Positions 16,981 to 38,734 of a stretch of DNA of 64,000 bases are shown here, piece after piece; within the stretch, counting starts at the first letter, position 1, and each line of letters opens with the position of its first letter. The position numbers were made by a program, and so were the translations under genes. The stretch covers positions 49,931 through 113,930 of the forward strand of contig JBDKJY010000002.1 in the NCBI GenBank assembly GCA_039796295.1. The letters run 5' to 3'. This DNA comes from Verrucomicrobiota bacterium (GTDB lineage: Bacteria; Verrucomicrobiota; Verrucomicrobiia; Limisphaerales; SXTU01). The notes beneath the pieces are model-generated. The model saw nothing but the letters and a program-made list of their open reading frames with translations, did no database searches and was not told the DNA's origin.

Positions 16981-17874
16981 ATGACCAACCTCATTGACGG
17001 CCGCGCCATCGCCGAGCAACTCCACACCGAGACCGCCCACCGCATCGCCGCGCTCAAGACGCGCGGCGTCCAGCCCGGCCTCGCCTTCGTCCGCGTCGGC
17101 GAAGACCCCGCCTCGCGCGTCTATGTCGGCATGAAGGAGAAGACCAGCCAACGCCTCGGCATCCAGTCCACCACCACCGTCCTTCCCGACACCACCACCC
17201 AAGCCGAACTCCTCGCCCTCATCGCCCAGCTCAACGCCGACCCGAGCTGCCACGGCATTCTCGTCCAAGCTCCCCTGCCCGCCCACATTGACCAAGCCAC
17301 CATCTTCGCCGCCGTCTCGCCCGCGAAAGACGTGGACGGCTTCCACCCCGTCAACGTCGGCAAGCTCATGCTCGGCGACCCCACCGGCTTCCTGCCCTGC
17401 ACGCCCGCCGGTGTCCACGAACTGCTCATCCGCAGCGGCGTCAAGACCGCCGGGGCCGAAGTCGTCGTCCTCGGGCGCGGCAACATTGTCGGCAAGCCGA
17501 TGACCGCCATCCTCTGCCAGAAAGCCAAGCACGCCGACGCCACCGTCACCCTCGTCCACTCGCGCACCCGCGACGTCGCCGCGCACTGCCGCCGCGCCGA
17601 CATCCTCATCGCCGCCATGGGCGTCCCCCACTTCGTGAAGGCCGACATGGTCCGCCCCGGTGCCATCGTGATGGACGTGGGCGTCAACCGCATCGCCGAC
17701 CCGACCGCGAAGAACGGCTCCCGCCTCGTCGGCGACGTGGACTTCGCCGCCGTCCAACCCCTCGCCGGCCTCATCACCCCGAACCCCGGCGGCGTCGGCC
17801 CCATGACCATCGCCATGCTGATGCAGAACACCGTGCGCGCTGCGGAGTCCGCGACCGGAGGGAAGAGTAGTTAG
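16981..17874 (+). CDS. folD: Bifunctional methylenetetrahydrofolate dehydrogenase/cyclohydrolase
   Basis: LIDGRAIA, KDVDGFHP, PCTPAG, ITPNPGGVGPMT. Confidence 0.96.
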   Translation: MTNLIDGRAIAEQLHTETAHRIAALKTRGVQPGLAFVRVGEDPASRVYVGMKEKTSQRLGIQSTTTVLPDTTTQAELLALIAQLNADPSCHGILVQAPLPAHIDQATIFAAVSPAKDVDGFHPVNVGKLMLGDPTGFLPCTPAGVHELLIRSGVKTAGAEVVVLGRGNIVGKPMTAILCQKAKHADATVTLVHSRTRDVAAHCRRADILIAAMGVPHFVKADMVRPGAIVMDVGVNRIADPTAKNGSRLVGDVDFAAVQPLAGLITPNPGGVGPMTIAMLMQNTVRAAESATGGKSS

Positions 17875-23858: not shown

Positions 23859-25928
23859 TCACCAGCTCATGATGGGGAGCAGGCTGGCGTAGTCATCGGT
23901 CCAGAGGGGAACGATTTTCTTAGAGGGTTCTTTGTGCCCTTTCTCCGAGGAGGGCTGGCGGCTGGCGATAAGGACGAGGAGGTCGGTGTTCTTGGTCAGC
24001 AGCACCCAAGTGGAGCTGTAGATCCACCAGTCCTTCTCGCCGTCGCCGTCGGAGATGGAGAGGTGTTCGTAGCCGAATTCTTTCGCGACGTTGGCGACGA
24101 CGGGTTCGAGGTCGAGGTAGCGGTTGGAGATGTGGATGGCGAGGATGCCGTCGGGGGCGAGGTGTTTGCCGTAGATGGCGACGGCTTCCTTGGTGAGGAG
24201 GTGGACAGGGATCGCGTCGCTGCTGAAGGCGTCGAGGGCAAGGACATCGAAGCGCTGCGGTTCCTCGCGTTCCATGGAGAGGCGGGCGTCGCCCAAGACG
24301 ACGTCAACGGTGCCGCCGAGGGCGCGGGTGTCTTTGATGAAGCTGAAGTGGTTGGTGGCGACGCGCAGGACCTCCGAGTTGATTTCGTAGATGCGGACGT
24401 AATCGCCCTTCTCGCCGAAGGCGGCGGTGGTGCCGGTGCCCAGGCCCACGACGCCGATGCGCTTCTGTTTGCTCGGGAAGTTGCGGATGGCCAGCGCCAC
24501 GCCGCTGCCTTCGCCGTAATAGCTGGTGATGCGGCGGCGCTGGTCGGGGTCAGTGAGCTGGAAGCCGTGGGTGATGCGACCGTGCTGGAGCAGGAGGTAG
24601 CGGGAGCCGGGGGTGTCCGCGCCGTATTCGAGCACGGACATCGCGCCATAAAAGTTGCGCGTGGACTCGATGACATTGTCCTTCTCGTGGCTCTGGACGA
24701 AGAACGCGAGGCACACAGCCATCGCGACGAGCGAGCCGGCCATCCACGCGTGGAAGCGCCACCACCGGAAGTTGGGCACGCGCCAGTTGGGCAAGCAGAC
24801 GAGCCAGACCAGCAGGGCGCACGCGCCGCAGGACCACGCCAGTTCCGCGTAAGTGGTGAAGACGTGCGGCGCGACCACGGCGACGAGGAAGCCGCCCAGC
24901 GCGCCGCCAACGGAAATCATCAGGTAGAAGGTCGTAAGCCAGCGCGGGTGCGGTTTCAGGGCATACAGTTCGCCGTGGCAGACCATGCTCGCGACGAACA
25001 TGGTCAGGCAGAAGGCGGGAATCTGCCACGCGATGCGGACTTCGTTAATGTTGGCTAGGACGTAGATGAGCCAGCCGAAGCACGCGACCATCGCGGGGAT
25101 GAAGAGCGGTCGCCAATACCAGCGGTGCGCATCGAAGCAGAGGATGAAGGTGAGCAGATAGAGGCTTAAGGGCAGAATCCAGAGGAAGGGAATCACCGCG
25201 ACGTCTTGGGTGAGCTTGTTGGTCGTCGCCAGCAGCAGGGCGGAGGCGCAGGCGGGCAGCGCGAGCCAGAGGAATTTCTGCCGGAGCGAAGGGGCGGCGG
25301 CGGGGGCTTCGTCAGCCGGGTTGTTCGCGGGGATTTCGTCCGTCGGGTTTTTGTTCCAGAGCAGCCACACGCACCACGCCGCGAAGGCAACGTAGGCCAC
25401 CAAGCCCCAGCCCCACGCGTGCGCTTGGAATTTGCGCGGCAGCTCCGGCTCGATGAGGAAGGGATACGCCAGCAGCGCCAGCAGCGAGCCAATGTTCGAC
25501 AGCGCGTAGAGGCGATAGGGGGATTTGTCCGGGTGCAGCCGCGAGAACCACGACTGCATCAGCGGGCCGGTCGTGGAGACGACGAAGTAAGGTAGGCCGA
25601 TGGTTGCGCCGAGGAGCAGCAGGATGTGGGTGATGGGAGCGTCGCCGGAGGTGGGTTTCCAAGCGTCGGCGGGAATGATGGGCAGCACCGCGAGCGACAC
25701 GAGCAGGAGCGCGAGATGCACCACGGCTTGCCCGCGCGGCTTGAGCCAGCGGCTGAGAAAATGCGCGTAAGCGTAGCCCGCCAGCAGCACGAGCTGGAAG
25801 AAGAGCATGCACGTCGTCCACACGCCCGGCGTGCCGCCGAACCACGGGAGGATGTATTTGCCGATGAGGGGTTGAACGAGGAAGAGCAGGAAGGCTCCGG
25901 TGAAAATCGTCAGTGCGAATGGCAGCAT
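23859..25928 (-). CDS. Fused MFS-like membrane domain / spermidine synthase-like methyltransferase
   Basis: FLLFLVQP, PWFGG, LYALSNIGSL; VVGLGTG, GDARL, DAFSSDAIP, WTDDY. Confidence 0.9.
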   Translation of the reverse strand: MLPFALTIFTGAFLLFLVQPLIGKYILPWFGGTPGVWTTCMLFFQLVLLAGYAYAHFLSRWLKPRGQAVVHLALLLVSLAVLPIIPADAWKPTSGDAPITHILLLLGATIGLPYFVVSTTGPLMQSWFSRLHPDKSPYRLYALSNIGSLLALLAYPFLIEPELPRKFQAHAWGWGLVAYVAFAAWCVWLLWNKNPTDEIPANNPADEAPAAAPSLRQKFLWLALPACASALLLATTNKLTQDVAVIPFLWILPLSLYLLTFILCFDAHRWYWRPLFIPAMVACFGWLIYVLANINEVRIAWQIPAFCLTMFVASMVCHGELYALKPHPRWLTTFYLMISVGGALGGFLVAVVAPHVFTTYAELAWSCGACALLVWLVCLPNWRVPNFRWWRFHAWMAGSLVAMAVCLAFFVQSHEKDNVIESTRNFYGAMSVLEYGADTPGSRYLLLQHGRITHGFQLTDPDQRRRITSYYGEGSGVALAIRNFPSKQKRIGVVGLGTGTTAAFGEKGDYVRIYEINSEVLRVATNHFSFIKDTRALGGTVDVVLGDARLSMEREEPQRFDVLALDAFSSDAIPVHLLTKEAVAIYGKHLAPDGILAIHISNRYLDLEPVVANVAKEFGYEHLSISDGDGEKDWWIYSSTWVLLTKNTDLLVLIASRQPSSEKGHKEPSKKIVPLWTDDYASLLPIMSW

Positions 25929-26054: not shown

Positions 26055-27899
26055 ATGCAAAAGCGCCAAACTCCAATTCGTAGCCGCCAAGGTGCGGAGG
26101 CGGAACTCGTCTCCAGCCAATCCGCCTCCTTACCTCGGCGGTTACCGCGCACCGTTGGGATTTGGAGCTGGGTGTTTCTTTGGAGCTTGGGATTGGGGAT
26201 TTGGTGCTTTCCCGCTGCCGCCGCGCCCGCGAAGCCGAACCTCATTTACATCCTCGCCGACGACATGGGCTTCTCGGACATCGGCTGCTACGGCGGTGAA
26301 ATTGCCACGCCGAATCTGGATGCGCTCGCGGCGGGCGGGCTGCGCTTCACGCAGTTCTACAACACCGCGCGCTGCTGCCCCACGCGCGCCTCGTTGCTCA
26401 CCGGGCTTTACCCGCACCAGGCGGGCGTCGGCCACATGGTGGACAGCAAGAAGGGCGGGCCGGGCTACCAGAACGAGTTGAACAAGAGCTGCATCACCAT
26501 CGCGCAAGCCGTGAAGCCCGCCGGCTACCGCGCCTACGCCGTCGGCAAATGGCACGTCACGCCCATCACGCGCGAGGACGACACGCCCCGCCACAATTGG
26601 CCGCTCCAGCGTGGCTTCGACCGCTTCTACGGCACCCTCCACGGCGCGGGCAGTTTCTGGGACCCCAGCTCGCTCGTGCGAGACAACCGCATCGTCACCT
26701 GCGTCAGCGACGCCGAGTATCAGCCCAAGGAGCCCTACTACTACACCGACGCCATCAGCGACCACGCGGTCCGCTTCATCCGCGAGCACGCGCAAGCCAC
26801 GGCGGACAAGCCCTTCTTCCTCTACGTCGCCTACACCGCCGCGCATTGGCCGATGCACGCGCGGGAAAGCGACATTGCCAAATACCAAGGCCGCTACAAC
26901 GCCGGCTACGAACCCATCCGCGCCGCGCGTTGGGCCAAGGCGAAACAGCTCGGCCTCGTGGACCCGAAGTGGGAGCTCACGCCCGCGTCAGGCGCGTGGG
27001 ACGGCGTGCGGAACAAGGCCTTCGAGGCGCGCTGCATGGAGGTGTATGCCGCGATGATTGACAGTATGGACCAAGGCATCGGGCGCATCGTGGCCGAGCT
27101 GAAGGCGCGCGGGCAGTTCGAGAACACGCTCATCTGCTACCTGCAAGACAACGGCGGTTGCGCCGAGCCGATGGGGCGAGGCACGAACTTCAGCGCCCGC
27201 GCGGAGAAGCCTTCCCTCCCGCCACTGGCCCCGACCGACCGCCAGCACGGTAGCGTGCCGAAGCAAACCCGCGACGGTTTCCCCGTGCGCCAAGGTTACG
27301 GCGTGATGCCCGGCCCGGCGGACACCTACCTCGGCTACGGACGCGAGTGGGCCAACGTGAGCAACACGCCCTTCCGCGAATACAAGCACTGGGTCCACGA
27401 GGGCGGCATCAGCACGCCGCTCGTCGCGCATTGGCCGAAGGGCATCGCAGCGCGTGGGGAACTGCGCTCGCAGCCCGGGCACTTGATTGACCTCATGGCC
27501 ACCGCCGTGGACCTCGCCGGCGCGCCGTATCCCGCTGAGTTGAACGGCGAGCGCATCACCGCGCTGCAAGGCGTCAGCCTCCGCGCCGCGTTCGCCAACC
27601 AGCCGCTCCCACGCCCCGAACCCATCTTCTGGGAACACGAAGGCAACCGCGCCGCCCGCGACGGCCAGTGGAAACTCGTCGCCAAAGGCCCCGGCGGAAA
27701 ATGGGAGCTCTACGACATGCTCGCCGACCGCACCGAAGCCCACGACCGCGCCGCCGCCGAGTCAGCCAAGCTGAAGGAACTCGTCACCAAGTGGGAAGTT
27801 TGGGCCAAGCGCGCCCACGTCATCCCCTGGCCACACATGCCGCAGTATGGCGAAGCCCCAACGGATGCGCCGCCGAAGAAGGGGAAGAAGAAGGTGTGA
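26055..27899 (+). CDS. Arylsulfatase
   Basis: PNLIYILADDMG, FGly motif CCPTRASLLTG, GKWH, DNGG; start codon uncertain. Confidence 0.9.
   Translation: MQKRQTPIRSRQGAEAELVSSQSASLPRRLPRTVGIWSWVFLWSLGLGIWCFPAAAAPAKPNLIYILADDMGFSDIGCYGGEIATPNLDALAAGGLRFTQFYNTARCCPTRASLLTGLYPHQAGVGHMVDSKKGGPGYQNELNKSCITIAQAVKPAGYRAYAVGKWHVTPITREDDTPRHNWPLQRGFDRFYGTLHGAGSFWDPSSLVRDNRIVTCVSDAEYQPKEPYYYTDAISDHAVRFIREHAQATADKPFFLYVAYTAAHWPMHARESDIAKYQGRYNAGYEPIRAARWAKAKQLGLVDPKWELTPASGAWDGVRNKAFEARCMEVYAAMIDSMDQGIGRIVAELKARGQFENTLICYLQDNGGCAEPMGRGTNFSARAEKPSLPPLAPTDRQHGSVPKQTRDGFPVRQGYGVMPGPADTYLGYGREWANVSNTPFREYKHWVHEGGISTPLVAHWPKGIAARGELRSQPGHLIDLMATAVDLAGAPYPAELNGERITALQGVSLRAAFANQPLPRPEPIFWEHEGNRAARDGQWKLVAKGPGGKWELYDMLADRTEAHDRAAAESAKLKELVTKWEVWAKRAHVIPWPHMPQYGEAPTDAPPKKGKKKV
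26080..26145. repeat. GTAG-type REP inverted pair inside the 5' end of the sulfatase ORF
   Basis: gtagccgccaaggtgcggaggcgga ... tccgcctccttacctcggcggttac. Confidence 0.65.
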
Positions 27900-28544
27900 G
27901 GTGGCGGAAGTTCCAGCCCGACGACCAAAGTCGAAGGACGCCCCGGGAGCAGCGCGGACTTCACCGCCAGTGCGAAAAACTTCTCCAACCGGCTTCAACA
28001 TTCTGCGGCGGCACCAGATCAGTCCCGCACGGTGGTGAGCAACCTGCGCGGTCCCGCCCGCACCCTAGGTGATGAATGCAATGGCTGCCGGACGGACTCG
28101 GTTGATTGTGTCCCCCCCGCTTCAACGCTGCTACGTCGAGGCCTGGACATCGCCGCTCTGTGTTTCCCCCCAGACGCTGCCGAACGCCAACTTCCGCCCC
28201 ATCCCCCCACTGCCACAGCAAACTCACCCATACGGCTCCCTCCACCGACTCCGGTCCACCGGATCGACGCAAGGCCGGTAGGGTCGGCAACCTCGGTCCA
28301 CTGGCCGCCCGACAACAGTTGACCAGAACCAACTCGGCACAGGCACGATTACGTAACCAACTTGACCGCCACGGTGGGTCCGCTTATACCCAACGCGCCA
28401 CTGCGGCTGTTAACGCCTTTGGGTTTTCCATGATGCGTTAGAGGTCTCTGTGTCTGACCGCGTTGCAAGTGTGTCACGCAGCGTCAGGCGGTGGCGTTTG
28501 AGATTGGTTCGTTTCGAGAGTGAACTACTCAAAGTTGGTAGGCT

Positions 28545-28587
28545 GGAGAGATGGCCGAGTGGCTGAAGGCGCTGGTTTGCTAAACCG
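28545..28587 (+). repeat. att site (left): 5' half of tRNA-Ser(GCT)
   Basis: ggagagatggccgagtggctgaaggcgctggtttgctaaaccg, identical to 36763-36805; identity ends in the 3' strand of the anticodon stem. Confidence 0.95.
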
Positions 28588-28705
28588 TTTTCCCCGTTTC
28601 TCACTTTTCCTCTAAAACACCAATACAACCAATGGATTCAATGCTTTTGTGCGTGTCCTCATTTTTGGCCCGTGGCACGTCGTGACAGCATTTTGACACG
28701 TTTTT

Positions 28706-28802
28706 TGTCGGCAACTGTCGGCAAGTTTGGGTCATTTACCGGCTGCGAGGTTGCGGCCTGTTCGACTCGCCGCCGCCTGCCAATACCTGCCGACAGTTGC
28801 CG
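28706..28802. promoter_or_regulatory. Putative integrase arm-type sites, left arm
   Basis: tgtcggcaac-tgtcggcaag (28706-28725) and an inverted copy at 28788-28802; same motif is repeated at 36667-36697. Confidence 0.65.
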
Positions 28803-29276
28803 GGGCGGACAACTCCCGATGCTCTTGGGTAGTCAGTCCGATGGTCTGGCCGACCACGGGCTTGCATGGCGCGGAGCGGACGGCTAGCAATGCCGTCCTC
28901 CCGTCTGGCGGGCGCGGGTATCCTCCGCACTTGGGTTGTGTTTGCACCTCAGGGTACAACTCGCCAGACGGGCCTTCCCCTCCTCCCGGCTTTGCCTCTG
29001 CAAGCGCGTGGTGGGGCGGTGGGGGCGGGGCACGGCAGCCGGGCAGCAACGGCGCGACGCACCTTGCGCCAGCGCCAGCCGAGCCAAAGCCGGAGGTAGT
29101 CGAAGCAACTCACAAAGGGGAGGCGCGGCGCGCGTTTGGGCACGCCGCGCCATGCGTTCCGGGGCTGCTTATGAGGTCAGCGCCGGTCACGCGAGGTTGG
29201 GCCGCCATTGGTTCGCGCGGAAGCCCAAGGCCGGAAAGCCGGGTCATCCGAAAAAGGCCAATGGCGGCCAAGGGGT

Positions 29277-29831
29277 TCATGCAGTGCCAAGGGCGAACTT
29301 CAAAACTTTGCGCACGCGGTCGAAATCCTCCCCGCCGGGGCGAACTTCGTTCAGTAAGTTTTTGAACGCATCGCAACGGCGAAGCTCCTCGTTCAATCTG
29401 GCAACAGCGGGGGATTCGCGTTGCGTCTCGACTCCGACGCGCGCGGCAATGACGGCCTCGGCCTCGACGATCTCGGCCAGCTCCTTTTCGAGCCGTTCCT
29501 TCACGATGGGCAGCGCGGCTTTCAACGGCTCCAGGGTGCGAGCGACAATCCTGCCGCGAATTGTGTGGGCGGCTCGCGCACTGTTCGAGCCGATGGCCAA
29601 CAGGCGCAAGGGCAGCGTTGCGGTCAACTCGACGCTGCGCCGGAAGGTTTCGTCGTTCGGGTTGTGCTCTGCCTCATTGCGAGCGGCGTGTTCAGCCCGG
29701 CGGGCTTCGGCCTGCTGTTCAGACAGGCTCTCAAGCCATGCAATGTCTTTGCCGTTCTCCGCTTCGATCTTGCGCAGCGGCGCGAGCGGGTCGGGCGAGA
29801 GTTTCAGAAACAAGCGTTGAATCAGGTTCAT
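29277..29831 (-). CDS. Satellite hypothetical alpha-helical protein (paralog A)
   Basis: 184 aa, amphipathic helices, colinear similarity to 29838-30374. Confidence 0.75.
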   Translation of the reverse strand: MNLIQRLFLKLSPDPLAPLRKIEAENGKDIAWLESLSEQQAEARRAEHAARNEAEHNPNDETFRRSVELTATLPLRLLAIGSNSARAAHTIRGRIVARTLEPLKAALPIVKERLEKELAEIVEAEAVIAARVGVETQRESPAVARLNEELRRCDAFKNLLNEVRPGGEDFDRVRKVLKFALGTA

Positions 29832-29837
29832 GGTGGT

Positions 29838-30374
29838 TCAGGCGTTGAAACCTTGCAGCAACCACGCCGCGTGGTGCGCGAGGCGCTGGTCGTTTTCGAC
29901 TTCGTGCAGCGCGTTCTGCGCGGCTTCGACGCGGGCCTTGATCTTCGTGGAAAGTCCGCCGGAGAGTTCCGCCGCCGGCACGCCGAGCTTTTCCGCACGG
30001 GTGGCGTCCTCTGCCGCCAGCGCGGATTCCTCGCGGGTCCAAAGGTCAATCGCCGCTTCGAGGGCGGGCGCTAGCGTCTCTTTGAGGCGGACAAGCTCAC
30101 TGCTGGTCTGCCATGACACCAAGGACGTGAACGCTTCGCGCAAGCCGGGGGCCTGTGTGGTTTCTGCGGCCATCGCGGCGACAAGGGCGGCGGCGGTTGC
30201 GTCGGAGGGTTCGTTTTGAAGCCGGGTGCGTGCGGTGCGAACGTCGGCGGCAAGCGCCTCGGCTTTCTGGTGGAAGGCCGCGCGCCATTCCGCATCCTTG
30301 GCGGACTGCGCTACGGCGCGGCGAAGGGCGGCGATTTCAACGGGCGGATTTTTTTTGAACAGGGAGGTAAACAT
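29838..30374 (-). CDS. Satellite hypothetical alpha-helical protein (paralog B)
   Basis: 178 aa, Ala-rich helices, tight operon spacing (6-7 nt to neighbours). Confidence 0.75.
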   Translation of the reverse strand: MFTSLFKKNPPVEIAALRRAVAQSAKDAEWRAAFHQKAEALAADVRTARTRLQNEPSDATAAALVAAMAAETTQAPGLREAFTSLVSWQTSSELVRLKETLAPALEAAIDLWTREESALAAEDATRAEKLGVPAAELSGGLSTKIKARVEAAQNALHEVENDQRLAHHAAWLLQGFNA

Positions 30375-30381
30375 GATGGTT

Positions 30382-31383
30382 TCAGTTTGGGAAAATCGCG
30401 GCGCGCTGGCCGTTTAGGCGTGCCGCCAGCCAAGCTTCGTAATCGGCGGGGAGTTCCTTCACGGCGGCGGTGATGGCCTCGCCGTGCGTCTTGCCACTGG
30501 CCGCAAGCGCCCGGCACTTGGCGATGAACTGCGCGGAGCTTGGCGCGGTGAGTTGTGCGCCGGGCGAGGCGGAGGACAGGCGGCGAACCACTTCGTTGAC
30601 CGTCTCACCGACAACGTCCACCAGTCCCAGTGCCTTCGCGCGACTGGCGAAAAACGTCTCGCCAGTCAGTGCGCCCTTCGCGATGCCACCGCGACTAGAC
30701 AGAACCGACGTGCGAAAATCCGTGGCGAGTTCGTCCACCTTGCCTTGCAGGCTCGCGCGGCCCTCGTCGGTGAGCTGCTGGAAGGGGTGAGCGGACGCCT
30801 TGCCCGTAGGCGAGGAAATCACAGTCGCAGTAATGCCTCGCATCGCGAGTGCATTGGAAACGCTCAGGTGCGAAATGACCGCGCCGACGCTTCCAACATT
30901 GGAACTTTTCGAGGCGGAGATGCGATTCGTCTTAGCGGCAAGCCAATAGGCGGCGCTGCAACAATTTCCGTCCACGATGGTTTGCACCGGGAGCTTCGTA
31001 GTTGTCGCCACGATGCTGTCCACGCATTCGAGCAGGCCGGAAACCTCGCCACCGGGCGAATCCACCAACAGCGCAACACCTCTCAGGCCCGGCGAGGTTC
31101 GCGCGGTTTCCAACGCGGCGGAGATGCCCGTGTAAGAGCAGAAGCCAAGGCTCAACTCAACGGTCGTTGCATTTTTCAAAAGCGGACCTTGAATGGGAAT
31201 GGTCATCACTCCGCCTTGAATTAACACCTGCGGGCGGTCGCTTCCGTCTGCCATTTTTCCGGCCACGGTGCCGGGGGTGGCGGCGAGGCTCACACGAGCC
31301 GCCCAAGCCAAAAGTGCGTTGCTTTCGGCAAGCCAGATTGGCGCTCGCGCGAAGATATAGTCGGCGGTTTGTGTGTTCATCAC
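30382..31383 (-). CDS. S49 family peptidase (phage prohead protease/SppA-like) with scaffold-like C-terminal tail
   Basis: VDSPGG, CCSAAYWLA (catalytic Ser), GSVG, GKAS (candidate Lys), TGETFFASRAKALGLVD. Confidence 0.88.
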   Translation of the reverse strand: MMNTQTADYIFARAPIWLAESNALLAWAARVSLAATPGTVAGKMADGSDRPQVLIQGGVMTIPIQGPLLKNATTVELSLGFCSYTGISAALETARTSPGLRGVALLVDSPGGEVSGLLECVDSIVATTTKLPVQTIVDGNCCSAAYWLAAKTNRISASKSSNVGSVGAVISHLSVSNALAMRGITATVISSPTGKASAHPFQQLTDEGRASLQGKVDELATDFRTSVLSSRGGIAKGALTGETFFASRAKALGLVDVVGETVNEVVRRLSSASPGAQLTAPSSAQFIAKCRALAASGKTHGEAITAAVKELPADYEAWLAARLNGQRAAIFPN

Positions 31384-31643
31384 AGTTGAGGGGAGTTGAG
31401 TTTTTCCAGTTCTGCTTTCAACAGCGGAAGGCGCTGCATCAGGAATAGCGGCTGGCCGTGCGTGTCGAGTGCGTCGGGCGTCAGCGCCCCGTCGGCGAAG
31501 GCGCGATATACTCTTGCCATCGGCGCGGAGGCGATGCGGGCGAGTTCCGCGCGAGAGAGGAACACGTCGAGACTACGGGGCGGCGGGGCGAGGTCCGCGC
31601 AGGCGTCACGCGCGGGGGCGGCAGTCACTTGCGTTGAAGTCAT
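31380..31643 (-). CDS. Small winged-HTH-like DNA-binding protein
   Basis: 87 aa; LSRAELARIASAPMARVYRAFADGALTP resembles MerR/Xis/TerS-type HTH; stop overlaps the S49 start. Confidence 0.6.
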   Translation of the reverse strand: MTSTQVTAAPARDACADLAPPPRSLDVFLSRAELARIASAPMARVYRAFADGALTPDALDTHGQPLFLMQRLPLLKAELEKLNSPQL

Positions 31644-31648
31644 GCTGC

Positions 31649-31677
31649 AAAGTAGGAGAGCTAATCGCACAAGTAAA
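31649..31677 (-). promoter_or_regulatory. Putative promoter of the satellite second (late) operon
   Basis: Minus strand TTTACT-17 nt-TACTTT, 5 nt before ATG 31643. Confidence 0.45.
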
Positions 31678-32063
31678 GGATTTAATGGAATGAGTTTTCC
31701 GAAACTGGTTATTCCCCCGCCCCCAGCGCCTTCATTGCCCGGCTGGCCGAATCCAAGACGCTCACCAGCTCCGCGTTGACCCGCTCCTCAACTGCAACCG
31801 GTTTTTTGGTCACTTGTGAAACGGAAACCCGAGTTTCGCTGAATTCATAGAAAGAGGGCGGTGGTCGAACCGCGTGAGGCTAAGGGTTTTCCAAGGAAAC
31901 TGTTTGACGGCATAGGCGGGGTAGGCACCACGACGGCCCGCCCCGCGCCCACGTTGACCGCTGTTGCGTCAGGACAGGCGAGGGAAGGTTTGCCACGGGG
32001 CACGCGGCCTGCCCTGCCTTGGCGGCTTGTGGGCGAGTGGAAGCCAGTAATGCGCGGTGGCGT

Positions 32064-32152
32064 ATGCGGACGCATAACAGCTTTTTCCCATAACTTTCCT
32101 CTAGCAGCTTCCGTGAGGGAAGTCTTGGGAAATTCCTGTTATACGTCCGCAT
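32064..32152. repeat. Large imperfect inverted repeat at the primase 3' end, candidate replication origin
   Basis: atgcggacgcataacag / ctgttatacgtccgcat (16 of 17) plus inner imperfect arms. Confidence 0.6.
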
Positions 32153-34398
32153 CCTAGTCTTGGGTTGCGATGCTTTCCGCCGCGTAGCCGGTAGCCAACC
32201 CAGCAATGCTGCCGCTCATGGCCTGACTTGGTTTCCTGCCAGCCTCGGCCTGCCAACTGGAAACCCAAACCACGCTTGCTGGCCTGATGGTCAATGCCTG
32301 CCCGCGTTGCCCATTCACGATAAGCCGCGTATGCCGCCGCCTTGGTGACGGTGGCCCCTTCCTCTTGGATGAAGTGCTCCGCGATGAATTCTGCCAGCTT
32401 GTCGGACTGTAGCCTGTAGGCTTCGGTTGCTACGGTGCAGCATTCGGGCGGCTGCAAACCGTGTTGCATCCATTCCCGCGCTCCCGTCACGGCCCAGTTT
32501 AGAATCCCCGACATTTCAGCGGCGAGCTTGTCCTTGAGTTGACCGTCGCGCCGTTCCTTGGGGATTTGCACCGGCCAGTCCACAAGGAGAAATCTCCGCC
32601 AGATTCCGTCATCGGTGCCGTCAATGCGCGGCTTGTGGTTGCCCACCAGCGCAACCTTGTAGGTCGGGAAATACTCGATGAAGTTCGCATAGTGAAAGCG
32701 CCCCTTCTGGCGGTCGCCGCCGGTCATGGATTTGAGCAAGTTTTCGTTGAGCTTCCCGCCTTCCGTGTTCTCCTCGCCCAGCGCAAAACGCTTCCCGCAC
32801 AGATTGGCGATCTCAAGGTGCGGGATGTGTCCCTTCGCGCTCTGATACACCAGCGCGTCCGTCAACTTCGCCCCGTAGCCGCCTGACAATTTCAGTTGAG
32901 CGTGTTCTAGGAAGGTGCCTTTGCCGTTGGCTCCCGTTCCGAAATGGAAGGGAAGGACGTGTTCACGAATCTCCCCCGTCAGCGAATAGCCCGCCAGCCG
33001 TTGAAGGAATCCTCGCATCTCTTCGCTCGGCTGAACCTCCGCGAGAAACCTGGCCCATGTCGGCGCGGTGGCGGTGGGGTCATAGTTGGCGCTCAGTCGC
33101 CGCGTGACAAGGTGCTCCGGCTTGTGCGGATGGAATGAGCCGTCGCGCAGGTCAATGACGCCGTTCCGTGCGCCAACAAGGAACAGGTCCGCGTCCAGCT
33201 CGGCAGCGCGCACGCTCACGGTCGGGTGACACTGGGCGAAGGCCAGAGCAGGCTCGACGCGCTTGCGATTCCCCAAAGAGACGACACTAGACACGAGTTT
33301 GATTCCCTCATTTGGCTCTTTGTCCTTAGCCTCCTCCACGGCCAAAAGATACAGCTCGCGTGCGTAGTCGGCAGCCTTTGCGCGAATCTCATTTGTCTCG
33401 TCTCGTCGCCAGCCATTCGCGGCGTCAAAGACGAGCCAGCAATTTTCATCGGCACAAAAGCGAATAGTGCCTGCGAACCGTTGCACCAGCTTGTCAGCGT
33501 AGCCAACGTCAGACCGAAAATGGTTTCCTGTGTCGGCAGTCGGATTCCCCGCCGGGGCGGACGCTGGCGCATGGCGCGGAGCGGGCTGCCACTCCGGCGC
33601 GGAATCCATAATCAGCGTCAAGTCTCTCGCCTCCCCGCCCGCCCCAAAGAAGTCGGCGGCGTCCTTCACCGTGCGCCCGTCAACGTCGGGACACTCGACA
33701 ACCTTCACGCTGGCCGCCGCGCCTTGCAGCTTGGCCGCAACGTGTGCCGCGTGTTCACGCCCCGGCTTGTCCCTGTCCGCGATGATGACGACGAACGCGC
33801 CTCGCAGGGCGGCGGTGTAGTTGTCGAGCCATTTGCTCGGCTGGCCGGGCTTCGGTTCTGAAACCGCTCCTCCCGAATTGCACGTCGCGATGAAACCGTG
33901 TTTGACGAGCGCGAGCGCGTCCTTCTCCCCCTCCGCCAAAACCACGCGCCAGCCTTGGGCGGCGGCTTCCGCAACTTCCGGCAGACGAAAGAGCACGCGG
34001 CGAACGCCTTCAAGTTTCCACGTCCATCCGTCGGGCTTGGCCGGGTCGGGCCGGCGCTGGCGGAAATCCTTCGGTTCAAACCGGACAACCTGAAAGAGCA
34101 GTTGCCCGGTTTCGTCGCGGTAGTCGTAGGCAGCCACGATTCTCCCGCTGCCGCGCGCGTGCCCGTTGCCGTTGCGTCCGCCTGTCGCGGGAAACAAGTC
34201 GGCCACCTTCAAGCCCCGCGCCTTCAACACGTCCTCCGTCTTGCAGCCGGCGAAACAGTTCACCAGCACCTTGCCGCCTTCGCCTTCCGCCAAGCTCAGG
34301 CTGGCCGCGCCGTCATCGTGAGCAGAGCAGCGAGCCATGAATCCAGCGCCGGACTTTTTGACGCCTTCAAAGTGGGAAGCAACTTCGTTCAGGTTCAA
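32101..34398 (-). CDS. Phage/plasmid primase-helicase, P4 family (Zn finger + Toprim + D5/SF3 helicase)
   Basis: CSAHDD...NCFAGC; AEGEKDA, ADRD; Walker A GTGANGKGT; KSMTGGD, GNHKP, GIWRR; TTG start after AGGAGG. Confidence 0.93.
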   Translation of the reverse strand: MNLNEVASHFEGVKKSGAGFMARCSAHDDGAASLSLAEGEGGKVLVNCFAGCKTEDVLKARGLKVADLFPATGGRNGNGHARGSGRIVAAYDYRDETGQLLFQVVRFEPKDFRQRRPDPAKPDGWTWKLEGVRRVLFRLPEVAEAAAQGWRVVLAEGEKDALALVKHGFIATCNSGGAVSEPKPGQPSKWLDNYTAALRGAFVVIIADRDKPGREHAAHVAAKLQGAAASVKVVECPDVDGRTVKDAADFFGAGGEARDLTLIMDSAPEWQPAPRHAPASAPAGNPTADTGNHFRSDVGYADKLVQRFAGTIRFCADENCWLVFDAANGWRRDETNEIRAKAADYARELYLLAVEEAKDKEPNEGIKLVSSVVSLGNRKRVEPALAFAQCHPTVSVRAAELDADLFLVGARNGVIDLRDGSFHPHKPEHLVTRRLSANYDPTATAPTWARFLAEVQPSEEMRGFLQRLAGYSLTGEIREHVLPFHFGTGANGKGTFLEHAQLKLSGGYGAKLTDALVYQSAKGHIPHLEIANLCGKRFALGEENTEGGKLNENLLKSMTGGDRQKGRFHYANFIEYFPTYKVALVGNHKPRIDGTDDGIWRRFLLVDWPVQIPKERRDGQLKDKLAAEMSGILNWAVTGAREWMQHGLQPPECCTVATEAYRLQSDKLAEFIAEHFIQEEGATVTKAAAYAAYREWATRAGIDHQASKRGLGFQLAGRGWQETKSGHERQHCWVGYRLRGGKHRNPRLGCGRITGISQDFPHGSC

Positions 34399-34550
34399 CG
34401 CGCGCCTCCTGCCGCGTGGCGGCGGCGCTTGCTCGGGAAGAAGTCGCGAAGGCGAAGGCCGGAGTCCGGTTCGTAGCCGCGCGCGAGGATGCGTTCAACA
34501 AGTCGGCGAGTTGAGCCGGAACACTTCGACCAACGGAGCGAAGATTTCAA
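34395..34550 (-). CDS. Small basic 51-aa ORF coupled between the HTH and primase genes
   Basis: MKSSLRWSKCSGSTRRLVERILARGYEPDSGLRLRDFFPSKRRRHAAGGAR; TTGA overlaps at both ends. Confidence 0.55.
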   Translation of the reverse strand: MKSSLRWSKCSGSTRRLVERILARGYEPDSGLRLRDFFPSKRRRHAAGGAR

Positions 34551-34792
34551 CGCGCACCTGCCTTCCCGGTCGTGCAGCGGCGGCGGTCAAGCCATGCGTC
34601 CACGTCAGCCTTCCGGTAGCGGACGGCCTTGCTGGAAATGCGGATGAAGGGAAGCCCGCGCGTGGTGCGCCACAGGCGGCAGGTGCGCGGCTCGACGTTC
34701 AGGTAAGCCGCCGTGTCGGATTCGAGCCAGAGAGCAGCGCTGGCATTTGCGGCCGGCGCGACGGCGGTTGGTGTCGGCAATGTTTGTTTCAT
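34547..34792 (-). CDS. AlpA/excisionase-like HTH protein
   Basis: TAAYLNVEPRTCRLWR...GLPFIRISSKAVRYRKADVDAWL; an alternative ATG exists at 34810. Confidence 0.88.
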   Translation of the reverse strand: MKQTLPTPTAVAPAANASAALWLESDTAAYLNVEPRTCRLWRTTRGLPFIRISSKAVRYRKADVDAWLDRRRCTTGKAGAR

Positions 34793-34850
34793 GGCGGGAG
34801 GTTCCGCCATGCGCCGCGCTTAAACCCGGACTGCGAAGGACCGCCGCCCG

Positions 34851-35423
34851 TTATTTGTTCCGAGTTTTCGGGCGGCCGCTATTGCCCTCCAAAAACGACA
34901 AGCCAACGACCTTTGCTTCCTTGCGCCAGTGCCGGTCGGAAAGTTTTCCGAAACTGGACGGGATTAGCACCTCGCTTTTCGTCTCGGGCCTGTCCGGGTC
35001 TGGTTTGACCTGTCGAAGCGTGAACTTTGGCAAGCCGGACTTCACGCGCCAGCGGTTCATCGTTTTGAGCATGAGCAAGTGAAGGTGGAATGGGTCCGCA
35101 TACTTCTCATTGAACCGCACGGACTGCCTGCGAACTTCTTTCGCAAGCCGCAGGAAGAAATCGGCGTCGTGTGCCTTGACCGCGTTCACACACTTGGCGG
35201 CGAGCTTGGTTTCCGAATCAGTGCCTCCGCTGGAAGTGAGAATCCGTCTGCTCAAAAGAGCCTGCTTGTTCAGGATGTAGAAGACTTCCTCAAATTCAGG
35301 GGAGAGATAATCGCAGGTGCCATGCTCCGCGAGTAGCGACTTGCGAAAGTCATCGGGGGCAATGCGAATTTTTCCGGCCAGTGTTTTGCGTTTTTTGGCG
35401 GGCTGTCGTTTGAGGGTCTTCAC
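34851..35423 (-). CDS. Satellite hypothetical basic protein
   Basis: GTG start overlaps the integrase stop (GTGA) after GGAGG; 190 aa beginning MKTLKRQPAKKRK. Confidence 0.7.
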   Translation of the reverse strand: MKTLKRQPAKKRKTLAGKIRIAPDDFRKSLLAEHGTCDYLSPEFEEVFYILNKQALLSRRILTSSGGTDSETKLAAKCVNAVKAHDADFFLRLAKEVRRQSVRFNEKYADPFHLHLLMLKTMNRWRVKSGLPKFTLRQVKPDPDRPETKSEVLIPSSFGKLSDRHWRKEAKVVGLSFLEGNSGRPKTRNK

Positions 35424-36667
35424 GCTGCCACCTCCGCCTTGCCGGCTGGCCTGACGGCAAACCACGCTTGCGCGTCGGACGGTTGAACCAATTCGCGGTA
35501 GTGCTTGAACACCACGGCAGGCGAGTTGCCCGCTTCCAGCGCGACTTGGGCGGCGTTTTGAATCGCGGCGAGCCGGTAGGAGATGAAGGAGTGGCGAAGC
35601 CCGTTGTCCTGCCACGCCACACCAGCGGCTTTGACACACGCGGCCCGGTCCTTTTGCAAGAGGCTCGCCGTGCCCTGCCATACCTTGCCCGGTTGCCCGG
35701 CGTAGGGCGCGAGCCATGCGGCCAAGTTCGCAGAGATGGGCACCAGTCGCCGGCTGGCCGTCTTCGCCATGTCCTCGCCGACGTGGATAAAGCCGCGCGC
35801 GAGGTCTAGGTCGCTCCATTCCAGCCGCTCGACTTCCGCCGTTCGCAGTCCGGCAAATGCGCCGATGGCGACAACCGGCAGGAAGCGCGGGGTGGCGGAT
35901 TGCAGCAGCTTGGCAATTTCGTCGGGGGCGAAAATTGCGATGCTGCCGCCGTTTGATTTCACCTTCACTTCCTCGGTGCCGAGCACCGGATTGCTCCCTT
36001 TGAGCAGGTAGCCACGCGCCTCGGCAAAGCTGAACAGCGTTCCCAGCACGGTGCGGAAGTTCTTTTTCGACTGCTTGCCGAGCTTCAAACCGTCGAGAAA
36101 CATTTGCACGTCGGCGGTCGTGACGGTGGAAATGTCCACGGTGAAACGCTCGGCAAAGCGCTTCAACCGCTGGCGCAAGTCGGTGAGGTAGTCCGCCGAG
36201 CAGCCGTCGGCGGCTTTGACGGCCAGCAAGTCGGCAATCACGTCGGCGACAAGGCGCTGCTCAACCTTGGCCGGGTTGAACTTGGCGAAGTGCCGGGCGG
36301 CTTCGAGCAGGTTGTCCCCGCCGAGCAGTTCAAAGCACTTGGCGAAGGTGGACGCGGCCAGTTCAAGAGAAGCGCCCGTTGGCCGCAGCAACTCGACGGC
36401 CCGGCCATAGCTGGCGGATTCGGCGTTGCTCAAACTGGCGGCAGACACGTCCCCGCTCGCAATCTTGCCGGCAATGCCCTTCGCGGCCTCGACGGCGGCG
36501 GGGCGGTCGCTGAAGCCACGAAAGCGCCGGACGCCTTCCGAATAGTCGGCCACCTCAAACACCGTGCGGAAGTTTCCGATTGTGGTCTGGCGACTCCGTT
36601 TGTAGATTCGGACCGTGACGTTGCCAACTTTAACAGTCTCCGGCTTTGAACGTGTCGCGCGTTTCAT
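35420..36667 (-). CDS. int: Tyrosine recombinase/integrase
   Basis: AGLRTAE (R), AKT (K), NGLRHSF, AGNSP, KHYR (Y); N-terminal arm-binding-like domain; adjacent to the att/tRNA. Confidence 0.95.
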   Translation of the reverse strand: MKRATRSKPETVKVGNVTVRIYKRSRQTTIGNFRTVFEVADYSEGVRRFRGFSDRPAAVEAAKGIAGKIASGDVSAASLSNAESASYGRAVELLRPTGASLELAASTFAKCFELLGGDNLLEAARHFAKFNPAKVEQRLVADVIADLLAVKAADGCSADYLTDLRQRLKRFAERFTVDISTVTTADVQMFLDGLKLGKQSKKNFRTVLGTLFSFAEARGYLLKGSNPVLGTEEVKVKSNGGSIAIFAPDEIAKLLQSATPRFLPVVAIGAFAGLRTAEVERLEWSDLDLARGFIHVGEDMAKTASRRLVPISANLAAWLAPYAGQPGKVWQGTASLLQKDRAACVKAAGVAWQDNGLRHSFISYRLAAIQNAAQVALEAGNSPAVVFKHYRELVQPSDAQAWFAVRPAGKAEVAA

Positions 36668-36703
36668 GTCGGCAACTGTCGGCAAAGTGTCGGCAACTGT
36701 CAA
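36667..36703 (-). promoter_or_regulatory. Arm-type repeats coinciding with the putative integrase promoter
   Basis: Three tgtcggcaa(c/a) copies; minus strand reads TTGACA-17-GACAGT-7-ATG. Confidence 0.6.
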
Positions 36704-36762
36704 CTACGGCCTTCTAGCACAAGGTCGGAACGGCTTGTAAAGCCAATGGTTTCAATGGTTTA

Positions 36763-36855
36763 GGAGAGATGGCCGAGTGGCTGAAGGCGCTGGTTTGCTA
36801 AACCGGTATACGGTCAAAAGCCGTATCGGGGGTTCGAATCCCCCTCTCTCCGCCA
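36763..36855 (+). tRNA. tRNA-Ser(GCT)
   Basis: Cloverleaf: acceptor ggagaga/tctctcc, anticodon loop ttgctaa, long variable arm, ggttcgaatc T-loop, encoded CCA. Confidence 0.97.
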
Positions 36856-37087
36856 CTTCCCAGTTTCCCCAACAGAATGAAAGGTTGTAGCGCATCCCGC
36901 TTGAGACGCAACGCGTCATACCGCATGCGGAGTGCCGGTCTTTTTGCCCTTCCGAGCACCACGCTTCATTGAGGTTCTTCATGCTTCATTGCTTGCTCCG
37001 TGCCGAGAGGGAACTGCGATTATCCCGAACTCCGGAATGGAAAAAGGGGCGCAATTTGGCAGAGGTTGACGGCATGGGGATTGATGG

Positions 37088-37390
37088 TTAGCCGGAACGA
37101 TGCAGTTGAAAGGAGACCACCGGTTGGGAACTGATTGGTGGTGGGTGAAAACACCGCAAACGTCGGGCACGCGCCCGGTTCACCAAAACGGCAGCCACGG
37201 GATTTGAGTTCAACAGCGGCGGCAAGACAATCGCCATTGAGTTCAGCGACCAACGCCTCTCGCCTCACGCGAGCAGCGCCACGTTCTGGGGCTGGCGGCG
37301 GCCCTTGGACTGGGTCACCCGGCTGGCCGCCGCATTGCCGCATCCCTTGCCCACTTCCAAACTCACCTCCTACTGCATCTTTCCGGCTTA
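37088..37390 (+). mobile_element. Internally deleted IS1380-like remnant (MITE-like)
   Basis: Terminal inverted repeats ttagccggaacgatgcagt / actgcatctttccggctta (17 of 19); frameshifted fragment IEFSDQRLSPHASSATFWGW...LPHPLPTS resembles an IS1380 transposase N-terminus. Confidence 0.6.
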
Positions 37391-37510
37391 GGATTACGAG
37401 CAGGTGCCACGGTTCGGCTGCCTCCCCCCTGCTCGTAAATCTGATCTTAATCCTGCTCCGCCCGCTTTCCCTTCCTGACAACGGCGGCTCAGCCCACTAC
37501 GCTCTCGCCC

Positions 37511-38341
37511 GTGTCCGCCGCCATTCAAACCCTCGGCCTCATCGCCGGCAATCGCACGCTGCCCTTCCTCCTCGCGCGCCAAGCGCGTGCGATGGGTGTC
37601 ACGCGCCTCGTCGCCGTCGGGTTCGAGGGCGAGACGGACCCCTCGCTCGCGGCGCTCGTGGACGACCTCGTCTGGCTGCGTGTGGGCCAGCTCGGCAAGA
37701 TGATTACCGCCTTCACTGAGCGCGGCGTGAAGCACTGCGTCATGGCCGGGCAAATCGCGCCCAAGAACCTCTTCGACCTCCGTCCTGACTTGCGGGCGGT
37801 CGCACTGCTCCTGCGACTCAAGGAGAAGAACGCCCACACCCTCTTCGGCGGCATCGCGGACGAGCTGAAGAAGGACGGCGTGGAACTCATCTCCGCCGTG
37901 CCGTGGTTGCAACCGCTTATGGCTGGCCCGGGCTTCGCACTCGGCAAGAAGTTGAGCGACGATGAGTCGGCGGACGTGCGCTTTGGCTTCCGCATCGCGA
38001 AGGAAGTTTCCCGTCTCGAAATCGGCCAGACCGCCGTAGTCAAGGGTGGGACCGTGCTCGCCGTCGAGGGCTTCGAGGGCACGGATAAGGCCCTCGCGCG
38101 CGGCGGCGAACTCGCCGGCAAGAGCGGCGGGGCCGTCGCCGTGAAGGTCGCGAAGGAGCAGCACGACCTGCGCTTCGACATCCCCTGCGTCGGCCCGCAG
38201 ACGCTCGAAGTCTGCGCCGCCAGCGGCGTCCGCGTGCTGGCCTTCGAGTCGGGCCGCACGCTGCTGCTGGAACAGGACGTGATGGCGAAGCTAGTGCGGC
38301 AGCACGGGCTTTCACTGGTCACGGTGGCGGCGGAGCAGTAA
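37511..38341 (+). CDS. lpxI: UDP-2,3-diacylglucosamine diphosphatase LpxI
   Basis: LGLIAGN, EIGQTAVV..G.VLAVEGFEGTD, VKVAK..HDLRFDIPCVG. Confidence 0.9.
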   Translation: MSAAIQTLGLIAGNRTLPFLLARQARAMGVTRLVAVGFEGETDPSLAALVDDLVWLRVGQLGKMITAFTERGVKHCVMAGQIAPKNLFDLRPDLRAVALLLRLKEKNAHTLFGGIADELKKDGVELISAVPWLQPLMAGPGFALGKKLSDDESADVRFGFRIAKEVSRLEIGQTAVVKGGTVLAVEGFEGTDKALARGGELAGKSGGAVAVKVAKEQHDLRFDIPCVGPQTLEVCAASGVRVLAFESGRTLLLEQDVMAKLVRQHGLSLVTVAAEQ

Positions 38342-38350
38342 TTCCTCCGC

Positions 38351-38734
38351 ATGCCGCACTTTCTCCCCGCGTTGGATGTCGCTGCTTTGTCGCCGGGCAA
38401 GGGCGAGACGGTTCTGCTCGCCGGCCGGCGTATCGCGGTCTTCAACGTCGGGGGCGAGTTCTATGCGTTGGACGATGGTTGTCCGCATCGGGATGGCCCG
38501 CTGGGCTCCGGCTGGGTGGACGCTGACGCGTGCCAAGTGACCTGCCCGCTGCACGGTTGGGCTTTCGACCTCCGCACCGGCGCGGGCGTCACCAAGCCGG
38601 CTCGGCCCGTGCGGAGCTATCCGGTGCGCGTGGTGGAGGGGAAGGTGTGGGTGAGCTTTCAGCAGTCAGCGGTCAGCGGCATTGCGGAGCCAGAGCAGCC
38701 AGTTCATCTTCCCCCGCCAACTGCTGAAAGCTGA
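38351..38734 (+). CDS. Rieske [2Fe-2S] ferredoxin (NirD-like)
   Basis: CPHRDGPL and CPLHGWAFDLRTG. Confidence 0.9.
   Translation: MPHFLPALDVAALSPGKGETVLLAGRRIAVFNVGGEFYALDDGCPHRDGPLGSGWVDADACQVTCPLHGWAFDLRTGAGVTKPARPVRSYPVRVVEGKVWVSFQQSAVSGIAEPEQPVHLPPPTAES

Follow-up and report, generated by a model that had tools for sequence, protein, structure and literature searches.

How does an intact serine tRNA gene come to stand directly behind the DNA of an integrated element, with a copy of its 5′ half left at the element's far end? The question is raised by a locus in the draft genome of Verrucomicrobiota bacterium GCA_039796295.1, which was assembled from a metagenome and consists of 97 contigs (6.2 Mb, 95% complete). 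The window, that is, the whole stretch of DNA analysed here, is 64 kb long and corresponds to positions 49,931-113,930 of contig JBDKJY010000002.1 (C2:49931-113930 of the draft).

The intact tRNA gene and its displaced 5′ half

ARAGORN identified tRNA-Ser(GCT), located at 36763-36855 on the + strand, as the sole tRNA in the 64-kb window. A 43-nt direct repeat (family D2) was detected by a repeat search of the window, with 100% identity between 28545-28587 and 36763-36805. The left copy, also on the + strand, represents displaced positions 1-43 of tRNA-Ser(GCT) and was designated the attL core; positions 1-43 of the intact gene were designated the attR core. A preliminary description of this DNA had placed tRNA positions 1-43 at 28545-28587 and the full gene at the far end, and both coordinates were confirmed by the exact repeat and by ARAGORN. 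An exact 43-mer repeat within 64 kb is far beyond chance. The identity ended after tRNA position 43, where the gene has a G versus a T at 28588, and the 43-nt copy stopped 1 base before the end of the anticodon stem.

When the whole draft was searched by BLAST with the tRNA, two copies only of its 5′ half were found, at 28545 and 36763. A second tRNA-Ser(GCT) predicted by ARAGORN on contig C3 was a GC-rich false positive without alignment to the real gene, and it was rejected. The preliminary description had proposed counting further copies of the gene; ARAGORN and BLAST together found a single true one, a second copy being possible in a 95%-complete draft. All five other genomes with a reversed element (one placed, as here, before the 5′ end of the tRNA) likewise had one tRNA-Ser(GCT) copy at ≥92% identity. 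AGC was the commonest Ser codon (15 of 28) in the neighbouring sulfatase gene.

Extent and gene content of element E1

The 8.2 kb between the 43-nt repeats (28588-36762) was named E1, and its recognisable genes all lie on the minus strand. The tyrosine integrase (35420-36664) was translated without an internal stop and matched PF00589 (29.5 bits, cut-off 27.1) and phrog_1 (1.6e-27). Its ORF spans 35420-36703 on the minus strand, with a conserved ATG at 36664; this ATG is 98 nt from tRNA position 1, and the integrase and the tRNA are divergent. The intact gene lies directly behind the integrase-proximal arm, as had been described, at 59-98 nt from the integrase start. The other genes with matches encode an HTH_17 excisionase-like regulator (34547-34810; PF12728, 2e-08; phrog_66, 3e-08), a D5-type DNA primase/helicase (32101-34398; PF08706, 1.7e-22; phrog_6088, 1.4e-144), and an S49-type head maturation protease (30382-31383; PF01343, 5e-21; phrog_53, 7.5e-55). 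Six small ORFs of E1 yielded no match in a Pfam and PHROG search. The cargo beyond the integrase and excisionase was mostly not common to related loci, with the primase matched in 2 loci and the protease in 0. The gene content expected of PICI-like elements within ~8-15 kb (integrase, regulator, replication, and morphogenesis/packaging) was present in E1, and its element family resembles small phage satellites of the capsid-encoding kind.

A 38-nt inverted repeat (I1, 32064-32152; 82% complementary, 13-nt spacer) was observed just 3′ of the primase gene end and might serve as a replication origin or a terminator. The DNA on the right of the tRNA is ordinary chromosome, with lpxI at 37511-38341; on the left of E1, a sulfatase gene ends at 27899.

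Arms of E1 and the attP of a circular relative

The 9-mer TGTCGGCAA was present in 7 exact copies in the window versus 0.59 expected. Three exact copies on the + strand (36667, 36677, and 36688; 36667-36696) are located directly upstream of the integrase ATG and constitute P arm-type repeats. The P′ arm-type repeats (28706-28802) comprise a direct pair of exact copies (28706 and 28716), which lies 119-137 nt inside the E1 left end, and an inverted copy of the pair (28780-28802; I6). The CCAATGGATTCAATG motif on the + strand of the P′ arm (28629-28643) had a second copy in the P arm (2 matches versus 0 expected in the window), where the CCAATGGTTTCAATG motif was matched at 36743-36757 on the + strand; the 15-mer CCAATGGNTTCAATG occurred solely at 28629 and 36743 in the window. 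Arm-type repeats flank both cores, and with these repeats and motifs the two ends of E1 have the make-up of a P and a P′ arm on either side of a core.

The 9-mer TGTCGGCAA was also observed at 34772-34780, at the start of the excisionase-like gene, where it may be a regulatory site, and at 17487-17495, far outside E1. The T-run at 28588-28591 together with the anticodon hairpin was considered as a conserved terminator and was rejected, being not kept in 7 related attL sites.

A relative of E1, L111, is an IMG/VR contig of 8161 nt whose 114-nt terminal overlap indicates a circle. Its integrase, excisionase-like protein, and primase were 60%, 54%, and 64% (over 450 residues) identical to those of E1, and its further genes include those for a small terminase and a major head protein. 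No match to the other element was detected for the left module of either E1 or L111. The L111 attP lies upstream of the integrase in the order P arm, approximately the first 41 bases of tRNA-Arg(CCT), and P′ arm. This tRNA part is a 5′ half only, which stops in the anticodon stem and is directly followed by non-tRNA sequence. The E1 right arm plus core aligned to the P side of L111, and the E1 core plus left arm aligned to the P′ side, arm repeats included. Since the contiguous attP of L111 is matched by both arms of E1, the E1 ends correspond to the two halves of an attP that carries a tRNA 5′ half; the earlier proposal of an element between the repeats with such an attP was thereby borne out.

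The data suggest the following route. The tyrosine integrase would recombine at the anticodon stem-loop of tRNA-Ser(GCT), using an attP that carries positions 1-43 of the gene and not its 3′ part. After integration, the distal end would be marked by a 5′ fragment (attL, 28545-28587), and the intact gene would be rebuilt from the 5′ half of the element and the 3′ half of the chromosome, directly behind the integrase-proximal arm (attR, 36763-36855). On this route, E1 lies ahead of the tRNA gene because the half that it carries is the front one and not, as is usual, the back one, and the rebuilt tRNA would be transcribed from the element arm.

Native upstream region and an older element in the left flank

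A conserved stretch of ~55 nt (aaaatTTGCTTg, about 20 nt, ggTTCAyTgg) preceded the intact tRNA-Ser(GCT) at 5 of 14 same-genus loci and in 1 genome of another family, and the neighbouring genes upstream of the stretch varied among those genomes. The native upstream region was absent at 9 of the 14 same-genus tRNA loci examined. An integrase was located upstream of the tRNA in L021, L022, L023, and L027 (in L027 the match covers residues 2-242 only), and in L024 an L021-like arm remnant was all that was left. In L035, L038, and L043, the conserved native stretch preceded the displaced 5′ fragment and not the intact gene, which is taken as structural proof of the proposed route in these three loci.

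In the window, the flank upstream of 28545 was without this conserved native stretch. Likeness to same-genus relatives ended at ~27900, the end of the sulfatase gene, and a remnant of an older element, E2, was recognised by an integrase match at 28326-28544 on the minus strand. The remnant consists of a decayed integrase N-terminus with an in-frame stop (28410-28412) and of the integrase-proximal arm, and it abuts the tRNA fragment. Its minus-strand translation reads ...KTQRR*QPQWRVGYKRTHRGGQVGYVI; in the part after the stop, QPQWRVGYKRTHRGGQVGYVI was identical at 12 of 21 residues to RPPWPRLYKRTHRSGQVAYAV of the L025 integrase (BLASTP E 1e-07). L025 is a genome of another family whose integrase faces tRNA-Ser, and the E2 flank shared 68% DNA identity over 238 nt with the tRNA-upstream region of L025.

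Because the E2 remnant abuts the fragment at 28545, this fragment was presumably once part of an intact gene behind the older element. E1 would have inserted into that gene, and most of E2, the outer fragment of E2, and the host promoter would since have been lost. We infer that the locus is a decayed tandem array from which the original host promoter is gone. Comparable tandem arrays were visible in L043 and L065.

It had further been proposed that a native promoter before the 5′ fragment fires a half-tRNA into the element. A native upstream stretch does precede the fragment in L035, L038, and L043, but this part of the proposal failed in the window, where the left flank is the E2 remnant, so no native promoter fires a half-tRNA in this genome. 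Any transcription of the half-tRNA here would come from the E2 arm.

Part of the native upstream region (ggggaaagtttgct) was also observed on contig C37 of the same draft (G000, ~25840-25900), with no tRNA after it. The ggggaaagtttgct site adjoins a homologue of the gene that neighbours the native tRNA in three relatives, and tRNA-Ser(GCT) may have left the C37 locus in this species. The downstream flanks were compared with regard to such a relocation, likewise with no match.

Candidate promoter of the rebuilt tRNA

Every gene of E1 is directed away from the only tRNA-Ser(GCT) found, so transcription of the tRNA would start in the element. The promoter most simply would lie within the 98 nt that separate the integrase ATG from the tRNA. 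A candidate was found at 36715-36743 on the + strand, consisting of TAGCAC, 17 nt, and TAAAGC, followed by a 19-nt leader. The hexamers and spacing are common to E1, L022, and L023 (TAGC(A/G)C, 17 nt, TAAAGC, 19 nt, tRNA) and the spacers differ, the three elements being close kin; the -35-like first hexamer was not kept in L111.

A consensus promoter scan returned 0 sites at either tRNA copy, the candidate included. A custom sigma-70 scan of 27 reversed-type upstream regions gave scores like those of shuffles (mean 7.43; 2 of 27 at p ≤ 0.1), and the control, native tRNA upstream regions of this genome, had a mean of 7.4 with 11 of 45 at p ≤ 0.1, so the scan had little power. That the element couples host translation to itself, as the preliminary description suggested, is speculation.

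Mobility of E1 and alternative explanations

We have high confidence in the reading of E1 as a phage-satellite-like integrative element of reversed polarity, with tRNA-Ser(GCT) rebuilt behind its arm and the older E2 at its left. An empty site was sought with the left flank in 60 relatives and by comparison of 16 tRNA loci; none was found, and same-genus synteny was absent beyond single genes. Metagenome pattern scans with two junction 31-mers returned 0 matches each. At least part of the stretch was present in 14 public runs, and the contigs aligned to it came from one metatranscriptome and three DNA runs. Neither a joint across E1 nor a circular junction, as products of E1 excision, was found in the contigs of these four runs.

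One contig of the RNA library, from a sample other than the likely source, covers 36623-36799 without differences and bridges the arm/tRNA junction with 140 and 37 letters on either side. More contigs of this library matched parts of the integrase, the protease, and the E1 left end. These contigs carry no strand or end information and the library may contain DNA, so they indicate presence and not a transcript. No contig of the four runs bridges the junction at 28545, which rests on the assembly and on analogy with relatives. The RNA-library run also had no contig cover on the flanks 27000-28535 and 37368-38500, where absence of contigs is no proof. Loose contig ends at the tRNA borders represented tRNA-Ser contexts of other organisms.

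E1 might be an immobile relic that integrated as described, lost excision, and now provides its arm as a permanent upstream region of the tRNA. This we regard as unlikely, yet it has precedents: an L021-like arm stands before the intact tRNA in two same-genus genomes, G002 (L027) and G006 (L024), with an integrase match that is partial in L027 (residues 2-242) and absent in L024; the E2 remnant in the window itself shows that such decay happens; and no E1 excision product was seen in the contigs of the four runs or in the pattern scans. Against a relic speak the E1 integrase without internal stop, the 100% identity of the 43-nt repeats, the intact state of both arm-repeat sets, the presence, in an RNA library from a different sample, of contigs with ≥99% identity to parts of E1, and the circular contig of the close relative L111.

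Very improbable is the explanation in which the element carries its own complete tRNA-Ser(GCT) and the 43-nt copy is what remains of a displaced host gene. In its favour, the draft yielded no further copy of the gene, whose place on the chromosome varies among species of the genus. However, the tRNA part of L111 ends within the anticodon stem, with the P′ arm directly adjoining, and makes up no whole tRNA; the sequence 3′ of the gene (to 36886-36931) is common to relatives with other upstream contexts and is followed by the housekeeping gene lpxI (37511-38341); and the fragment of a displaced host gene would be the half that the element lacks, not the 5′ half found here. An origin of the 43-nt copy in faulty assembly or binning is scarcely credible even for a metagenome-assembled draft with no contig bridging the 28545 junction, given that both copies lie well inside one 240-kb contig, the P′ arm beside the fragment has its homologue in the P′ arm of L111, the same layout occurs in 7 other assemblies, and the arm/tRNA junction is bridged by an RNA-library contig from an independent sample.

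Polarity among related integrases

Three paralogous integrases of the same genome (35-40% identity) are located directly after the 3′ end of tRNA-Arg(CCG), tRNA-Leu(CAA), and the tmRNA gene. They lie on the same strand as their target gene, which is the classical layout, whereas the integrase of the window alone faces the tRNA 5′ end. Species-representative genomes were then scanned with an alignment (A1) of three reversed-type integrases, which yielded 80 loci, nearly all from Verrucomicrobiota MAGs. A tRNA was found at the integrase start in 51 of the 80 loci, of which 20 were reversed and 31 classical; one more locus, with the tRNA inside the estimated gene, was excluded, and the reversed L083 is the same record as L021. 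The reversed loci targeted Ser-GCT (14), Arg-CCT (3), Arg-TCT (1), Thr-TGT (1), and Cys (1).

Within the flanks retrieved, a distal direct repeat was detected in 7 of the 20 reversed loci and was always a 5′ fragment (positions 1-43 in three, 1-39 in two, 1-38 and 1-35 in one each), bounding elements of 6.4-10.2 kb. A 3′ fragment was detected in 7 of the 31 classical loci (25-75 in two; 31-75, 33-76, 45-74, 58-85, and 60-87 in one each). The remaining loci had short flanks or no detectable repeat. Related integrases beside 5′ tRNA fragments, which the preliminary description had suggested looking for, are thus represented by seven loci. Identity blocks ended at 35-43 in reversed loci and started at 25-33 in 5 of the 7 classical loci with a fragment. 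These ends are consistent with crossover in the 7-nt anticodon loop, a position estimated from the block ends alone. An anticodon-loop crossover with reversed polarity had been proposed for the window, and both the reversed layout in 20 of 51 loci and the block ends agree with it. The distance from the integrase start to the anticodon loop was similar in both layouts, roughly 95-125 nt, as would fit a core flipped inside an otherwise unchanged attP.

A tree was built from 48 rows, comprising 42 of the 51 labelled loci (best tblastn segment >330 residues), four integrases of the genome itself, L021, and L025. In a quick IQ-TREE analysis, the reversed/classical label needed 6 changes, at least 4 of them forced by branches with SH-aLRT ≥95, versus a shuffle mean of 15; the rows are kin and include one duplicate-record pair, and the labels derive from gene order, with fragments confirmed in a minority. 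One well-supported clade contained users of Arg-CCT of both polarities (L039 and L072 classical, L071 reversed). A single clade of 18 reversed rows was rejected by the AU test (p = 5e-06; L025 left out as a long branch). At least 4 flips together with both polarities on tRNA-Arg(CCT) suggest that the enzyme reads the symmetric anticodon stem-loop only and that the attP half sets the polarity. Whether polarity is in this way no fixed family trait, and whether repeated reversed integration with decay permanently replaces the promoter of an essential tRNA, we consider evenly balanced.

Some further arrangements were observed at these tRNA genes. In L040, tRNA-Thr(TGT) had a 5′ fragment (1-37; L040:7508-7544) ~2.2 kb upstream and a 3′ fragment (25-75; L040:17394-17444) ~7.5 kb downstream, and both sides of the gene seem to be occupied, by a reversed remnant and a classical element. 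Fragments of the 3′ part of tRNA-Ser(GCT) (~53-93) were present at G062:C3:10273-10309, G064:C4:585800-585836, and G061:C54:50309-50348, tens of kb off the reversed-element tRNA-Ser(GCT) and some of them inverted, which hints at classical islands or inversions at this gene. Several contigs within L029-L108 with Verrucomicrobiota-type integrases and tRNAs were titled Klebsiella, Bifidobacteriaceae, Acidoferrum, Saccharimonadales, or Proteobacteria; these titles are probably binning or labelling errors.

Significance and comparison with known systems

With the mirror layout, mobile DNA comes to lie in front of an essential tRNA gene that is apparently present once, so the expression of this gene would depend on sequence that arrived with the element. 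If our reading is true, the sole tRNA-Ser(GCT) found has element-derived DNA upstream whether or not E1 excises. The E1 locus is a clear worked example, with intact arms, a circular relative showing the attP, and relatives in which the native promoter stands before the orphan half, and the integrase family is a natural experiment on polarity and target change by tRNA-targeting integrases. Beyond the locus, the repeated polarity switching in the family and the replacement of the tRNA upstream region by element remnants in many species of the genus, apparently permanent, may be worth specialist attention.

In its cargo, E1 resembles what we take to be its counterparts, the capsid-forming phage satellites (PICI-like elements). 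Like them, it has a size of ~8 kb and encodes an integrase, an excisionase-like regulator, a primase, and a head-morphogenesis gene.

Insertions by which the 5′ part of a tRNA gene is displaced ("reversed target gene orientation") were reportedly described by Zhao and Williams in 2002, a paper cited in PMC6563490 and PMC1635311. The layout of E1 is a rare, already catalogued way of tRNA-gene insertion and no new mechanism. The Islander report gives 159 islands with a 5′ tDNA fragment versus 3760 with a 3′ fragment (159 of 3919, ~4%; PMC4383910), and its "configuration filter" expressly accepts 5′ fragments upstream of the gene (PMC4383910). The suggestion in the preliminary description that island finders miss 5′ fragments is therefore untrue of Islander, which lists 159 of them and has a dedicated filter (PMC4383910). 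By Islander-type criteria, E1 presents an intact tRNA and a same-orientation terminal fragment on one replicon, a 5′ fragment (28545) upstream of the gene (36763) with both on the + strand, and a tyrosine integrase (PF00589 above cut-off) inside an 8.2-kb interval, the accepted range being 2-200 kb.

E1 shares with 5′-fragment tDNA islands a tyrosine integrase island upstream of the intact tRNA, a 5′ fragment of the same orientation at the distal end, and a site probably centred on the anticodon. It differs from them in the host phylum (Verrucomicrobiota), in the target (tRNA-Ser(GCT)), and in an outer flank that is the remnant of an older element, with the native promoter gone. Both polarities and repeated switching, as seen in the E1 integrase family, were not found stated in the literature consulted on 5′-fragment islands. 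A Klebsiella preprint describes one integrase clade that integrates upstream of arg2.

Classical anticodon-loop tRNA integration is covered by the Williams 2002 sublocation scheme, as summarised in a preprint (bioRxiv 10.1101/2020.11.02.365908). E1 is like it in a block that spans the whole anticodon stem-loop, in two-sided arm repeats, and in an integrase beside the core. In contrast to the classical case, the identity block of E1 reaches from the anticodon stem back to the start of the gene and not forward to its 3′ end; because the block extends to the 5′ end, the rebuilt gene loses its own upstream region. The same rare polarity is known from archaeal elements, which, according to one report, recombine with the 5′-distal part of tRNA genes, in one thaumarchaeal case a tRNA-Ser gene (PMC6563490). 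E1 shares this polarity with the archaeal elements and is set apart from them, by description, by another domain of life and other integrase families.
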